The notes below the pieces were generated by a model. That model made no database searches. It was not told the origin of the DNA and was given only the letters and a program-made list of their open reading frames with translations. A stretch of DNA of 64,000 nt from Escherichia coli (GTDB lineage Bacteria > Pseudomonadota > Gammaproteobacteria > Enterobacterales > Enterobacteriaceae): NCBI RefSeq assembly GCF_022846255.1, contig NZ_AP025682.1, one strand, 5' to 3'. Of this stretch, positions 7,810 through 13,001 are shown piece after piece. A program made the position numbers and the translations under genes. Each line of letters begins with the position of its first letter. Position 1 is the stretch's first letter.

Positions 7810-7834
7810 TTCCCCTTAATCCAGCAAACATAAA

Positions 7835-7872
7835 AGCCAACCTTAAGAACTTAAGGTTGGCTTAATTTTGCT
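7835..7872 (+). terminator. adiC intrinsic terminator (long hairpin plus T-rich tail)
   Basis: Inverted repeat agccaaccttaag / cttaaggttggct followed by taattttgctttg. Confidence 0.6.
7850..7866 (+). promoter_or_regulatory. PmrA (BasR) box-like direct repeat CTTAAG-N5-CTTAAT upstream of eptA
   Basis: cttaag gttgg cttaat about 47 nt upstream of the eptA ATG; matches the PmrA half-site pattern; further CTTAAT/CTTAAG hexamers at 7815 and 7842. Confidence 0.55.
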
Positions 7873-7912
7873 TTGCGAGCATATGCGCACTTTGTTCGAT
7901 GGAAACACCGTG

Positions 7913-10230: not shown

Positions 10231-11322
10231 ATGCGTTTTCTGCGCCGACCAATATCGCTGCGCCAACGGCTGATATTGACCATCGGGGCCATTTTGTTGG
10301 TGTTTGAGCTGATCAGCGTCTTCTGGCTATGGCATGAAAGTACCGAGCAGATTCAGCTGTTTGAGCAGGCGCTACGCGACAATCGTAACAACGATCGCCA
10401 CATCATGCGTGAGATCCGCGAGGCGGTCGCCAGCCTGATTGTCCCCGGCGTCTTTATGGTCAGCCTGACGCTATTTATCTGCTATCAGGCGGTACGCCGC
10501 ATCACCCGCCCGCTGGCGGAGCTGCAAAAAGAGCTGGAAGCGCGCACCGCCGACAACTTAACGCCCATTGCCATTCACAGCGCCACCCTCGAAATCGAAG
10601 CGGTGGTTTCGGCGTTAAACGATCTGGTCAGTCGCCTGACCAGCACGCTGGATAACGAAAGGTTGTTTACCGCTGACGTCGCGCACGAACTGCGAACGCC
10701 ACTGGCGGGGGTGCGTTTGCATCTGGAACTGCTGGCGAAAACGCATCACATTGATGTAGCACCGTTAGTGGCACGACTTGATCAGATGATGGAGAGCGTC
10801 TCCCAGCTGCTGCAACTGGCGCGTGCCGGACAGTCATTTTCTTCCGGTAATTATCAACATGTAAAACTGCTGGAAGATGTCATTCTCCCCTCGTATGACG
10901 AACTTAGTACCATGCTCGACCAGCGCCAGCAAACCCTGCTATTGCCAGAGAGCGCCGCCGACATCACCGTTCAGGGTGATGCAACCCTGCTGCGGATGTT
11001 ATTGCGAAACCTGGTAGAAAACGCCCATCGTTATAGCCCACAAGGCAGCAACATTATGATTAAGCTGCAAGAAGATGGCGGAGCGGTCATGGCCGTTGAA
11101 GATGAAGGGCCGGGTATTGATGAGAGTAAATGCGGGGAGTTGAGTAAAGCGTTTGTACGAATGGACAGCCGTTATGGCGGAATTGGTCTGGGGTTAAGTA
11201 TTGTCAGCCGCATTACACAGTTGCATCACGGGCAGTTTTTCCTGCAAAACCGGCAAGAGACTTCCGGCACGCGGGCCTGGATACGGCTGAAAAAAGATCA
11301 GTACGTGGCAAACCAGATATAA
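10231..11322 (+). CDS. basS: sensor histidine kinase BasS/PmrB
   Basis: ORF track begins at TTG 10222; the ATG at 10231 gives 363 aa; HisKA H-box (ADVAHELRTPL) and ATPase domain. Confidence 0.88.
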   Translation: MRFLRRPISLRQRLILTIGAILLVFELISVFWLWHESTEQIQLFEQALRDNRNNDRHIMREIREAVASLIVPGVFMVSLTLFICYQAVRRITRPLAELQKELEARTADNLTPIAIHSATLEIEAVVSALNDLVSRLTSTLDNERLFTADVAHELRTPLAGVRLHLELLAKTHHIDVAPLVARLDQMMESVSQLLQLARAGQSFSSGNYQHVKLLEDVILPSYDELSTMLDQRQQTLLLPESAADITVQGDATLLRMLLRNLVENAHRYSPQGSNIMIKLQEDGGAVMAVEDEGPGIDESKCGELSKAFVRMDSRYGGIGLGLSIVSRITQLHHGQFFLQNRQETSGTRAWIRLKKDQYVANQI

Positions 11323-11387
11323 AGAAAGCTGCTGACCACCAGCACGCTGAACACGGTAGTTAAACTTTCATAAACACGGTTTTTCAT
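11298..11387 (-). CDS. pmrR: 29-aa membrane peptide PmrR (MKNRVYESLTTVFSVLVVSSFLYIWFATY)
   Basis: Hand-translated small ORF missing from the ORF track; strong SD GGAGGAGAG upstream; single hydrophobic helix; overlaps the last 25 nt of basS on the opposite strand. Confidence 0.75.
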   Translation of the reverse strand: MKNRVYESLTTVFSVLVVSSFLYIWFATY

Positions 11388-11431
11388 TGCACTCTCCTCC
11401 GTTAACCTGGAGGAGAGTATGCGCGTCAGAG

Positions 11432-11448
11432 ATTAAGTGAACCTTAAG
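11432..11448 (-). promoter_or_regulatory. PmrA box-like CTTAAG-N5-CTTAAT (minus-strand reading) upstream of pmrR
   Basis: Plus strand attaag tgaac cttaag; the reverse complement reproduces the same half-site arrangement seen upstream of eptA. Confidence 0.5.
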
Positions 11449-11498
11449 AGTTCAATTGACCTGATAAGACAGCGTCACATCAGGCCATCCGTTTCAGC

Positions 11499-13001
11499 TT
11501 ATTCATCAATTCGCGGATGTTGCTGCACCAGGCGGGTACGTTTCGCCTGCAAATCGGCAATCTCGTGGTCAATATCATCGATTTTCTGCTCGATATTATC
11601 GTAATGCTCGACGAGAATTTCCTTCGCTTCCTGTATATCTGACGCCGCTGGTGTCGCACCTTTCAACGGTCGATTCGCCGTCTCTTTCATGGTTACGCCG
11701 GTGATTAAACCAACCACCGCCACTACCATCAGGTAATAGGCAGGCATCATCAGATTCTGCGAGCTTTCGACCAGCCAGGCCGCCAGCGTTGGCGTCAGAC
11801 CGGCAACCAGCACCGAAATATTAAATGCCGCCGCCAGCGCGCTGTAACGGATATGCGTCGGGAACATCGCAGGCAAGGTAGAAGCCATAACGCCCGTAAA
11901 GCAGTTAAGGATCACCGCCAGCATCAATAAGCCGGCAAAAATCAGGCCGATGACGTTACTGTTAATCAGAATAAACGCCGGGATCGCCAACACAAACAGT
12001 GCAACACTACCAAGAAGCACAAACGGACGACGGCCAAAACGGTCACTCAGCAAGCCCATCACCGGTTGAACAAACAGCATACCGATCATAATGGCGATAA
12101 TAATCAGCACCCCGTGGTCTTCGGAGTAATGCAGGTTATGCGACAAATAACTCGGCATATAGGTCAGCAACATGTAGTAAGTCACGTTGGTGGCAATTAC
12201 CAGACCAATACATGTCAACAGGCTGCGCCAGTGTTTGGTGGCAATCTCTTTAAACGAGACTTTCGGGCCATCCTGCAAACCTTCGCGGTCGCCCTGTTCC
12301 AGTTTATCGACATGCTGCTGGAACGCCGGAGTCTCTTCCAGCGCATGGCGCAGGTAAAGCCCGATAATCCCTAACGGCAGAGCGATAAAGAACGGAATAC
12401 GCCAGCCCCAATCGAGGAAGTTCTCTTCGCCGACAATGGTCGAAATTAACACCACTACGCCAGCTCCCAGCACAAACCCGGCAATAGAACCAAAGTCCAG
12501 CCAGCTGCCCATAAAGCCACGTTTACGGTCAGGGGAGTATTCCGCAACAAATATTGACGCCCCGGTATATTCACCGCCGACCGAGAAACCTTGTGCCATC
12601 TTACAGATCAACAGCAGAATCGGTGCCCAAATACCAATCGTGTCGTAGGACGGTATTAAGCCAATACAGAACGTACTGATCGACATAATCACAATAGTGA
12701 TAGCGAGGATCTTCTGGCGACCATATTTATCGCCCAACATACCAAAGAAGAGCCCGCCAAGCGGTCGAATCAGAAAGGGAACGGAGAAAGTGGCGAGTGC
12801 AGCAACCATCTGCACGCTGGGGTCAGCCCCCGGGAAAAAAACTTTACCTAATGCGTAAGCAACAAAACCATAAACACCAAAATCGAACCATTCCATTGCA
12901 TTACCCAGTGATGCTGCGGTAATGGCTTTACGCAGTTTACCGTCATCAATAATGGTGACATCACGAAGGGTAATCGGTTTTACTTTTTTCCTTTTCAGCA
13001 T
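11499..13001 (-). CDS. proP: proline/glycine betaine:H+ symporter, osmosensing MFS transporter
   Basis: ORF track 11499..13034 trimmed to the start giving 500 aa (MLKRKKVKPITL...); MFS with C-terminal coiled-coil. Confidence 0.9.
   Translation of the reverse strand: MLKRKKVKPITLRDVTIIDDGKLRKAITAASLGNAMEWFDFGVYGFVAYALGKVFFPGADPSVQMVAALATFSVPFLIRPLGGLFFGMLGDKYGRQKILAITIVIMSISTFCIGLIPSYDTIGIWAPILLLICKMAQGFSVGGEYTGASIFVAEYSPDRKRGFMGSWLDFGSIAGFVLGAGVVVLISTIVGEENFLDWGWRIPFFIALPLGIIGLYLRHALEETPAFQQHVDKLEQGDREGLQDGPKVSFKEIATKHWRSLLTCIGLVIATNVTYYMLLTYMPSYLSHNLHYSEDHGVLIIIAIMIGMLFVQPVMGLLSDRFGRRPFVLLGSVALFVLAIPAFILINSNVIGLIFAGLLMLAVILNCFTGVMASTLPAMFPTHIRYSALAAAFNISVLVAGLTPTLAAWLVESSQNLMMPAYYLMVVAVVGLITGVTMKETANRPLKGATPAASDIQEAKEILVEHYDNIEQKIDDIDHEIADLQAKRTRLVQQHPRIDE

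Follow-up and report, generated by a model that had tools for sequence, protein, structure and literature searches.

A helix joining the -10 region and the Shine-Dalgarno sequence of pmrR in Enterobacteriaceae, and its possible role in masking read-through RNA

Transcripts of the IS10 and IS50 transposase genes that are initiated outside the element are reportedly inhibited by fold-back of the RNA. The promoters of these elements start between or inside the arms of an inverted repeat, so that only read-through RNA folds and is translationally silent. RNA thermometers and translational riboswitches likewise pair an anti-Shine-Dalgarno-like stretch with the Shine-Dalgarno (SD) sequence, and carry both arms inside the gene's own 5′ UTR. 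The gene examined here, pmrR, encodes a PmrA-activated membrane peptide that is reported to bind and inhibit LpxT in Salmonella (Kato et al. 2012; E. coli gene b4703). PmrR sets the balance between phosphorylation of lipid A by LpxT and its decoration with phosphoethanolamine, and polymyxin and bile-salt resistance are affected as a result. Ectopic PmrR harms growth in the absence of stress (PMC11429745); growth suffers from PmrR excess as well as from PmrR shortage. The pmrR-basS pair has been catalogued as a convergent excludon (PMC12288877) and has a Rho termination region antisense to basS, although a 25-nt coding overlap alone is no proof of regulation.

The window analyzed here is a stretch of 64,000 nucleotides of Escherichia coli (assembly GCF_022846255.1, contig NZ_AP025682.1). 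At the level of the gene, this pmrR does not differ from the one described in Salmonella and as E. coli b4703: it is the same gene, in the same position overlapping pmrB and with the same PmrA box. Because pmrR, its box and the overlap are established biology, the advance is incremental. The hairpin is contained in the consensus of Rfam RF02052. What appears to be new, judging from sequence comparison, is that the helix is preserved by compensatory changes in ~50 Enterobacteriaceae species and that its 5′ arm lies on a -10-like hexamer; the accessible PmrR papers make no mention of a hairpin in the leader or of how it lies relative to the start of transcription.

As in IS10 and IS50, the 3′ arm of the inverted repeat lies over the ribosome binding site, the gene's own start (here predicted) falls inside or after the 5′ arm, and read-through occurs on the strand of the gene. 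Unlike those transposase genes, pmrR is a chromosomal gene for a stress-regulon peptide. Its promoter depends on an activator, and the 5′ arm falls on the -10 hexamer of that promoter; an upstream mRNA also appears to end at the helix, and the translational silence is predicted. It differs from thermometers and riboswitches in the predicted position of the anti-SD arm, upstream of +1; by promoter geometry, pmrR's own transcript would not hold both arms of the SD helix.

The pmrR locus and its leader hairpin

Coordinates of the features are collected in Table 1. Translation of 11387..11298 (-) gave MKNRVYESLTTVFSVLVVSSFLYIWFATY, which aligned over residues 1-29 of 29 with the NCBIfam PmrR model NF033224 (74.2 bits, cutoff 30); PGAP annotates pmrR in essentially all of 5,412 matching E. 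coli genomes. A sequence-only reading of the window had called this 29-codon minus-strand ORF pmrR and had placed it antisense to the last 25 nt of basS. The model score and the RefSeq E. coli annotation bear out the first assignment and the end of basS at 11322 the second: the two convergent genes share 11298..11322, and the layout in K-12 is identical.

Table 1. Features of the pmrR region, in window coordinates
Feature	Coordinates	Strand	Evidence
basS/pmrB, sensor kinase gene	10231..11322	+	NCBIfam NF008025, 644 bits; K-12 annotation
pmrR CDS, 29 codons and stop, LpxT activity modulator PmrR	11387..11298	-	Translation; NCBIfam NF033224
Terminator-like stem TGCTGGTGGTCAGCA, then GCTTTCTTTA, within the pmrR CDS	11320..11344	-	Terminator scan; Rfam STnc630 consensus structure
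Term-seq RNA 3′ end, 4 nt past the 10-bp stem	11387	-	K-12 4332116, plus strand, LB OD 2.0; bioRxiv 10.1101/2020.07.18.207399
3′ arm of helix, GGAGGAGAGT; holds the pmrR SD, stops 3 nt short of ATG	11391..11400	-	Sequence, fold
Loop, 8 nt, AGGTTAAC; first base A11408 is one of two predicted start positions	11401..11408	-	Sequence
5′ arm of helix, ACTCTCCTCC, anti-SD-like; predicted promoter positions ~-9 to +1	11418..11409	-	Sequence, fold
CATACT, -10-like hexamer, 10 nt past the end of the PmrA box	11421..11416	-	Conserved hexamer and spacing
PmrA (BasR) box CTTAAGGTTCACTTAAT, substituting for a -35 element at pmrR	11448..11432	-	Motif match
proP, same-strand gene upstream of pmrR, likely source of read-through RNA carrying both arms	11499..13001	-	NCBIfam NF007927, 1089.8 bits; K-12 annotation

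Upstream of the start codon, CTCTCCTCC (11417..11409) is perfectly complementary to GGAGGAGAG (11400..11392). The earlier description of a perfect 9-bp inverted repeat over the SD was right about the perfect pairing and one pair short in length, the full helix being 10 bp (ACTCTCCTCC/GGAGGAGAGT, 11418..11391). In RNA structure prediction, which the same reading had proposed as a check, the leader helix folded at -19.9 kcal/mol (z = -3.55), a value equalled by 0 of 200 shuffles. The 64-kb window has four places where a perfect stem of 10 bp or more encloses a loop of 3-10 nt, against 0.5 expected from dinucleotide shuffles.

The hairpin was also considered as an intrinsic (Rho-independent) terminator and rejected: the helix is directly followed by UGCAAUGAAAAACC (pmrR sense) or UAUGCGCGUCAG (basS sense), with no U-tract on either strand, and the terminator scan made no call at it. 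For the short mRNA, the SD was also predicted to pair over a long range with sequence beyond the pmrR stop codon; this was set aside since its z of -0.78 was no better than that of shuffles.

The region matched Rfam RF02052 (STnc630) over its full length at 11456..11291 (-), with 182 bits against a gathering threshold of 55, and the STnc630 consensus structure already includes both this helix and the stem within the CDS. STnc630 is filed as a small RNA candidate, whereas the region is the pmrR mRNA with its promoter, and model positions 9-25 are the PmrA box, a DNA rather than an RNA signal; Rfam STnc630 is thus promoter plus mRNA, not a small RNA. The term "STnc630" was absent from the searchable main texts. 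The model starts 8 nt upstream of the PmrA box; a 5′ end at that point may have been visible to those who built it, although the reads could equally have come from read-through RNA.

Conservation and covariation of the helix

A PmrA box, a helix and a small hydrophobic ORF were found in the same order downstream of pmrB in ~50 other Enterobacteriaceae species, a recurrence that, judged from the sequences, is well beyond chance. The box was kept in 55 of 80 pmrB loci; a hexamer of the form (G/C/T)A(C/T/A)ACT stood at a constant distance of 10 nt from it in nearly all loci, and an A was found 7 nt past the hexamer in 29 of 43 distinct loci. Among the 44 distinct hairpins that were recovered, ~36 had a 5′ arm running from within this -10-like hexamer to 3-7 nt past it, and the rest lacked a convincing stem in that register. 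The 3′ arm in other genera always had a GGAG/GAGG core and ended 0-7 nt ahead of the start codon, which the extended stem entered in four loci. The loop is free to change in sequence: in E. albertii it differs between identical arms. Loop length ranges from 4 to 12 nt. Stems are weakened in several genera, and where uvrB directly adjoins pmrB the helix is lost along with pmrR. The BasS genome scan gave no Salmonella locus, and Salmonella is represented through the Rfam consensus only.

In an unguided MAFFT alignment from box to ATG, gaps fell in the 5′ arm, so RNAalifold recovered the helix with only 5 pairs. For the covariation count, the arms of 39 distinct sequences were re-anchored on the conserved ACT and AG columns, with pairing information unused; five Phytobacter-type rows, in which ACT is shifted by 2 nt and each of which has a perfect stem of 8-10 bp, were omitted from the formal count. 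Among the 39 sequences, 81.5% of cells were paired, compared with 36-50% when the 3′ partners were slid, and cells changed on both sides numbered 40 against 14.7 in shuffles, with 0 of 500 shuffles as high (kinship ignored). At pair 7-20, for example, AU occurred 13 times, CG 8, GC 6 and GU 6. These comparisons indicate that the helix is real and under selection, preserved by compensatory changes.

A perfect palindrome over a core promoter could also be a DNA operator for a dimeric repressor acting on the -10/+1 region of pmrR. Arms that covary between genera instead of conserving their sequence, with complementarity kept and G·U-type mismatches tolerated, and loops of such variable length form a pattern typical of RNA helices and not of protein operators, so this candidate was rejected as very improbable.

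The inverted repeat also folds in basS-sense RNA and might act mainly on the plus strand, as a 3′ stem-loop of the eptA-basRS (pmrCAB) mRNA that sets the level of pmrB mRNA or the stability of its 3′ end, its overlap with the pmrR SD being incidental. The deletion series of Xu et al. 2021 is consistent with such a role: the +86 construct, which ends at 11408 and lacks one arm, gave no colistin resistance from plasmid-borne pmrB, and its pmrB mRNA was ~315-fold lower than with +126, while +103, with the whole hairpin, gave partial resistance. The +103 construct stops at 11425 and +126 exactly at 11448, so the series also removes the pmrR -10 hexamer and the PmrA box. It therefore cannot separate the models, and its authors report an unaffected mRNA half-life. 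Wobble favors the other strand: read in the pmrR sense, stem mismatches comprised 29 G·U against 13 A·C (kinship ignored). Of 43 distinct loci, 30 had the more stable fold in the pmrR sense (Wilcoxon p = 0.001, mean -1.5 kcal/mol, kinship ignored). Term-seq, moreover, reported no basS-sense 3′ end at the hairpin. We regard a primarily plus-strand role as unlikely.

Promoter geometry and the transcripts that carry both arms

The PmrA box CTTAAGGTTCACTTAAT consists of two YTTAAK hexamers 5 nt apart with 0 mismatches. The pattern had 2 matches in the window against 0.37 expected, the other being at 7850..7866 (+), just upstream of eptA, so that CTTAAG-N5-CTTAAT, with half-sites arranged as at eptA, is present as the sequence-only reading had stated. 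Deletion of the box in E. coli gave the expected LpxT-dependent polymyxin phenotype, and the box is required for PmrR function (PMC8129183). PmrA boxes substitute for the -35 element, and the pbgP box spans ~-37..-21 (PMC10570014). The pmrR promoter matches this type, its box being followed by CATACT after 10 nt (expected ~8-10 nt). Since the box replaces the -35 element and ends at ~-21 in pbgP, we infer that pmrR transcription starts at ~11411..11408, with 11409 or 11408, 7-8 nt past CATACT, as the best positions. A sigma-70 consensus scan of 11200..11700 called no promoter; because the promoter is activator-dependent and lacks a -35 element, the scan was counted as evidence neither way. The Cappable-seq supplement had no entry around K-12 43320xx, and no STnc630 or pmrR entry was found in the searchable parts of the Salmonella supplements.

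The 5′ arm (11418..11409) overlaps CATACT and the next 7 nt, and a start at ~11411..11408 would leave just 0-3 nt of it in the PmrA-activated transcript. With the 5′ arm present, the SD had a predicted mean P(unpaired) of 0.00; the value rose to 0.55-0.71 if transcription began at 11409 or 11408. The sequence-only reading had the SD locked within the pmrR mRNA and suggested extra post-transcriptional control inside the regulon. Neither proposal agrees with this geometry, from which the start is derived: the hairpin would need an RNA initiated before the promoter in order to form, and so would not be an extra layer of control on the PmrA-induced message.

That the PmrA-induced mRNA itself nevertheless holds the whole hairpin, with the SD opened by something further (temperature, a helicase or a small RNA, for example), is suggested by the strength and conservation of the helix and by the STnc630 model, which covers both arms and begins upstream of the box. 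A start at 11412 would still permit a weak 4-bp CUCC/GGAG stem (mean P(unpaired) 0.34). However, the 5′ arm sits on the conserved -10-like hexamer and the following 6-7 nt in nearly all genera, a -35-replacing box that ends at ~-21 to -25 cannot give a start upstream of 11418, and Ribo-RET detects PmrR initiation at low Mg without any known extra factor. On this evidence a hairpin within the induced message is decidedly unlikely.

Upstream genes, RNA 3′ ends and read-through

Of the 55 loci with a box, 53 have a same-strand ORF upstream of pmrR. The seven loci from Escherichia and C. amalonaticus have proP there, and in most other loci the ORF is of uvrB size (~673 aa), with the uvrB identity confirmed for K. 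pneumoniae only. The gene proP responds to osmotic stress or RpoS, and uvrB to SOS. Because the upstream gene varies between genera, the helix goes with pmrR and not with any one upstream gene.

Read-through RNA on the pmrR strand exists, according to published 3′ ends and termination sites. A Term-seq 3′ end from Supplementary file 1 of bioRxiv 10.1101/2020.07.18.207399, mapped onto the window through the K-12 annotation, lies directly past the hairpin (Table 1). By SEnd-seq, transcription of the upstream gene terminates within pmrR (PMC10687069). Published Term-seq data show Rho-dependent termination antisense to basS, in a region at K-12 4332468, and pmrR-sense RNA therefore extends ~260 nt beyond the pmrR stop codon.

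From these observations we lean slightly towards the reading that the hairpin keeps read-through RNA from being translated, that it also serves the upstream mRNA as a 3′-end cap, and that it is not a switch on pmrR's own message. With phosphorylated PmrA on the box, RNA polymerase would use CATACT and start at ~11409/11408, giving an mRNA with a leader of ~22 nt that lacks the 5′ arm, so that the strong SD GGAGGAGAG would be free and PmrR made. Both arms would be present only in transcripts that start upstream, from proP in Escherichia, from uvrB in most other Enterobacteriaceae and sometimes from another gene. In such read-through RNA the -20 kcal/mol helix would hide the SD, leaving PmrR untranslated unless PmrA is active, and the upstream mRNA, once processed or terminated, would have its 3′ end at this same stable helix. 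Since half of the hairpin is promoter DNA, it probably silences only stray transcripts from the upstream gene.

Masking need not be the selected function, because only ~30-45 nt separate the -10 hexamer from the ATG and any stable stem there would overlap the SD. The helix might serve only proP or uvrB upstream, protecting or terminating the 3′ end of their transcripts, and the block on pmrR translation would not be selected. The Term-seq end 4 nt past the stem was seen in stationary phase, when proP P2 is active, and in several genera the upstream stop codon is only a few nt from the box, which makes this the first site possible for a stem. Against such a function, the helix stays by pmrR while the neighbor changes from proP to uvrB or others, it vanishes with pmrR where uvrB abuts pmrB, its 5′ arm is anti-SD-like in all genera, and the stem lacks a U-tract while a separate terminator-like stem lies further downstream. 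A role confined to the upstream 3′ end therefore seems improbable.

Read as masking of read-through RNA, the arrangement would form a promoter-embedded anti-SD conserved in Enterobacteriaceae: the -10-to-+1 DNA of the pmrR promoter would double as the anti-SD arm, so that PmrR translation would be licensed only by starts there, while read-through from proP or uvrB would be silenced and capped at its 3′ end. We advance this general form tentatively, giving it somewhat less than an even chance. If true, a single 26-nt element would both shield the output of the PmrA regulon against unrelated stress regulons and fix the 3′ end of a neighboring mRNA. Insulation from proP or uvrB read-through would keep PmrR strictly PmrA-dependent, although pmrR occupies the 3′ tail of a gene with high expression.

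The pmrR-like genes of Klebsiella, Raoultella, Kluyvera, Kosakonia and Phytobacter scored under the annotation cutoff, and may be missed as PmrR.

The pmrR locus and its established features

The features of the locus were confirmed in every detail as the sequence-only reading had described them. The ORF at 11387..11298 (-) translates to the same 29-residue peptide and is PmrR (NCBIfam NF033224, 74.2 bits, cutoff 30), an already known protein; its antisense overlap with the coding sequence of basS, the plus-strand ORF for PmrB/BasS that ends at 11322, is 25 nt; the inverted repeat over the Shine-Dalgarno sequence (SD) is perfect, with 10 bp against the 9 of that reading; and the PmrA box pattern occurs at two sites in the window, pmrR and just upstream of eptA, versus 0.37 expected. 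Upstream of pmrR is the 500-codon minus-strand gene for ProP. The REP-like palindrome forms a long stem in folded read-through RNA, that is, pmrR-sense RNA starting upstream (at proP in Escherichia), and is specific to Escherichia, since uvrB lies upstream in other genera.

Features of the pmrR and eptA regions (window positions; pmrR region in pmrR-sense order)
Feature	Position	Strand	Sequence or remark
proP stop	11499	-	
REP-like palindrome	11455..11487	-	GGCCTGATGTGACGCTGTCTTATCAGGTC; between proP stop codon and PmrA box
PmrA box	11448..11432	-	CTTAAGGTTCACTTAAT
Spacer	between PmrA box and CATACT	-	ctctgacgcg
Hexamer	11421..11416	-	CATACT
5′ arm	11418..11409	-	ACTCTCCTCC; begins within CATACT
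Loop	between the two arms	-	aggttaac
3′ arm	11400..11391	-	GGAGGAGAGT; then gca, then ATG
pmrR ATG	11387	-	start of the ORF
Terminator-like stem	11344..11320	-	TGCTGGTGGTCAGCA, then GCTTTCTTTA (T-tract); within pmrR coding sequence
Rho-dependent termination region	~11035	-	K-12 4332468 (+); antisense to basS
Perfect palindrome, 13 bp	7834..7875	+	AGCCAACCTTAAG-AA-CTTAAGGTTGGCT, then TAATTTTGCTTT
eptA PmrA box	7850..7866	+	within the palindrome

A 501-nt query was 100% identical to Nissle 1917, and pmrR was annotated at the locus in 12/12 sampled records (out of 5,412 matching genomes); the K-12 annotation is b4703. The span 11456..11291 is a 182-bit match to Rfam RF02052 (STnc630), a family whose consensus structure already includes the helix. 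Deletion of only the pmrR-promoter PmrA box made pmrA-constitutive E. coli polymyxin-susceptible, which lpxT deletion reversed (PMC8129183). E. coli PmrR is produced under low Mg and is membrane-associated, as determined by Ribo-RET and western blots, and growth is impaired by pmrR deletion and by ectopic PmrR alike (PMC11429745). The pmrR-basS pair is a listed convergent excludon (PMC12288877). Thus gene, box and overlap are not new; only the role of the hairpin goes beyond what was known.

Fold and conservation of the helix

The RNA structure prediction proposed in the earlier reading gave a minus-strand fold of -19.9 kcal/mol (z = -3.55) with 10 perfect bp; perfect stems of at least 10 bp occur at 4 places in the window versus 0.5 expected. 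For comparison, scanning one genome per species with BasS as the seed yielded 80 pmrB loci, of which 55 have a PmrA box on the opposite strand, ~95-160 nt past the pmrB stop. At ~49 of these 55 a 28-32 codon hydrophobic ORF follows, with a common layout of box, 10-nt gap, hexamer [G/C/T]A[C/T/A]ACT (CATACT, GACACT, GATACT, GATAAT and similar) and helix. The 5′ arm starts within the hexamer and stops 3-7 nt past it, the loop is 4-12 nt, and the 3′ arm carries the SD and stops no more than a few nt from the start codon.

Arm sequences vary by genus yet remain complementary (5′ and 3′ arms, respectively: Escherichia, as tabulated; Raoultella, GACACTATCCTCAT and ATGAGGATAGTGTC; Phytobacter, ACTCTCCTGA and TCAGGAGAGT; Kosakonia, ACACTGCCC and GGGCAGTGT; an Erwinia-labelled MAG, ACACTCTCCCA and TGGGAGAGTGT). 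Among Escherichia loci the arm sequences do not vary; the loop and the box-hexamer spacer do. In an alignment anchored at two conserved motifs, ACT and AG, with pairing information unused, 81.5% of cells were paired versus 36-50% with partners slid, and both sides had changed in 40 cells versus 14.7 in shuffles (observed value reached by 0/500); one helix pair was seen as AU 13, CG 8, GC 6 and GU 6. RNAalifold, run on an unguided MAFFT alignment, recovered the basal part of this helix and its covariation. Since the arms covary and the loop differs in length, a DNA operator is a very improbable reading of the palindrome.

The inverted repeat folds as RNA on both strands. Among transition-type mismatches in 44 distinct hairpins, 29 were G.U in the pmrR sense and 13 were A.C (G.U in the basS sense), and the pmrR-sense RNA was more stable in 30/43 distinct loci (mean difference -1.5 kcal/mol, Wilcoxon p = 0.001). 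Both tests favour selection on the pmrR-sense strand and both ignore phylogeny, which makes them supportive rather than conclusive.

Klebsiella, Raoultella, Kluyvera, Kosakonia and Phytobacter (loci L020, L012, L042, L061, L027 and others) have a positional pmrR counterpart of 28-32 aa on the opposite strand just past the pmrB stop, behind the same box and helix and ending H-x-W-V/L-L-T/S-F/Y. These score 0-22.5 bits against the NCBIfam PmrR model (cutoff 30), and so may remain unannotated as PmrR.

Predicted transcription start and SD accessibility

In the pbgP promoter, the PmrA box is at ~-37..-21 and the -10 element at -12..-7 (PMC10570014). The pmrR box ends at 11432, which would place +1 at ~11409 if CATACT is the -10 element (box end then at -23), or at 11411 by the -21 geometry of pbgP. 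An A is located 7 nt past the hexamer in 29/43 distinct loci, and the purine nearest the predicted +1 in E. coli is A11408. This predicted start is the pivotal point: with +1 at ~11409-11411 the 5′ arm would belong to promoter DNA. A start upstream of 11418 cannot be driven by a box in the -35 position.

The SD, which the sequence-only reading had taken to be sequestered by the hairpin, is so in any folded RNA that includes the arm (mean P(unpaired) 0.00) and would be more accessible in the predicted PmrA-driven mRNA (0.55 and 0.71 for starts at 11409 and 11408; 0.34 and 0.47 at 11412 and 11411). That the SD is locked within pmrR's own mRNA is improbable, because transcription would then have to begin before the -10 hexamer, which promoter geometry disfavours; the idea that the message induced by PmrA is under "extra post-transcriptional control" is probably wrong as stated, the same geometry placing the 5′ arm in the promoter. 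Long-range SD pairing predicted in the full-length short mRNA was no better than in shuffles (z = -0.78) and was rejected.

Upstream transcripts and the proposed role of the helix

Same-strand ORFs of at least 120 codons were present upstream of the box at 53/55 loci: proP in the loci of Escherichia and Citrobacter amalonaticus (seven in all), a uvrB-sized ORF (~673 aa; uvrB identity confirmed for K. pneumoniae only) in most other genera, and other genes at two single loci. Since the upstream gene differs outside Escherichia and C. amalonaticus, the eptA-pmrAB-pmrR module occupies another chromosomal location there, yet box, helix and ORF have moved as a unit. The stop codon of the upstream gene in several genera overlaps the box or is within a few nt of it, leaving no room for a terminator ahead of the pmrR promoter.

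Term-seq detected an RNA 3′ end at K-12 4332116 (plus strand, LB, OD 2.0), and a Rho-dependent termination region (Rho score 8.6) is published beyond pmrR (bioRxiv 10.1101/2020.07.18.207399). By K-12 coordinate mapping the 3′ end falls on the first base of the pmrR start codon (A), 4 nt past the stem, the pattern expected of 3′ exonucleases trimming to a stable stem, and the Rho region implies that pmrR-sense RNA extends ~260 nt past the pmrR stop into basS. Growth in LB to OD 2.0 fits stationary-phase proP expression. By SEnd-seq, the upstream gene reportedly terminates within the pmrR coding sequence (PMC10687069), which the terminator-like stem there matches; this stem is part of the STnc630 consensus structure and would act on pmrR's own mRNA too. 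Together, the 3′ ends and downstream termination sites indicate that hairpin-bearing pmrR-sense RNA exists in vivo.

The best-supported model, which we favour by a little, assigns the helix a function in read-through RNA, where it would bury the pmrR SD so that PmrR synthesis still requires transcription to start at the PmrA promoter, and would double as the 3′-terminal stem of the upstream mRNA. That it is purely a 3′ cap, with SD masking not selected, is unlikely; in its favour, the pmrR leader is too short for any stem to miss the SD. Similarly doubtful is a role in the pmrB 3′-UTR. Xu et al. found that plasmid-borne colistin resistance requires the region downstream of pmrB, in which they noted stem-loops and pmrR; their +86 construct ends at 11408 and lacks one arm, and +103 ends at 11425 with the helix complete. 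However, these end-points fit stepwise restoration of the pmrR promoter equally (11425 adds the -10 hexamer; +126 is the box end, 11448), PmrR production alone could account for the resistance gradient with a constitutively active plasmid PmrB, and the authors saw mRNA half-life unchanged.

The evidence thus supports a conserved insulating hairpin with a promoter-embedded anti-SD arm. Its nearest parallel is fold-back inhibition in IS10 and IS50, which shields their transposase genes from outside promoters; the pmrR helix would be a further example of this known mechanism, of modest interest. Pantoea sp. A4 (L058, 3560..3660 (-)) has a box, a -10-like GAAAAT, SD GAGGAGAG and a PmrR-like ORF, with neither an anti-SD arm or helix nor a large same-strand upstream gene, a single anecdotal case that fits read-through insulation. 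At six Enterobacteriaceae loci where the uvrB 3′ end directly abuts the pmrB 3′ end (L008, L011, L016, L033, L046, L080), PmrA box, helix and small ORF are absent together; pmrR is therefore absent there and patchy within the family, and the joint absence fits the model, again anecdotally.

At eptA, the palindrome containing the PmrA box looks like an intrinsic terminator for adiC, the gene upstream, and the 3′ arm of this palindrome would also supply the first box half-site. If this reading is true, both PmrA promoters in the window overlap DNA that specifies a hairpin in the RNA coming from upstream.
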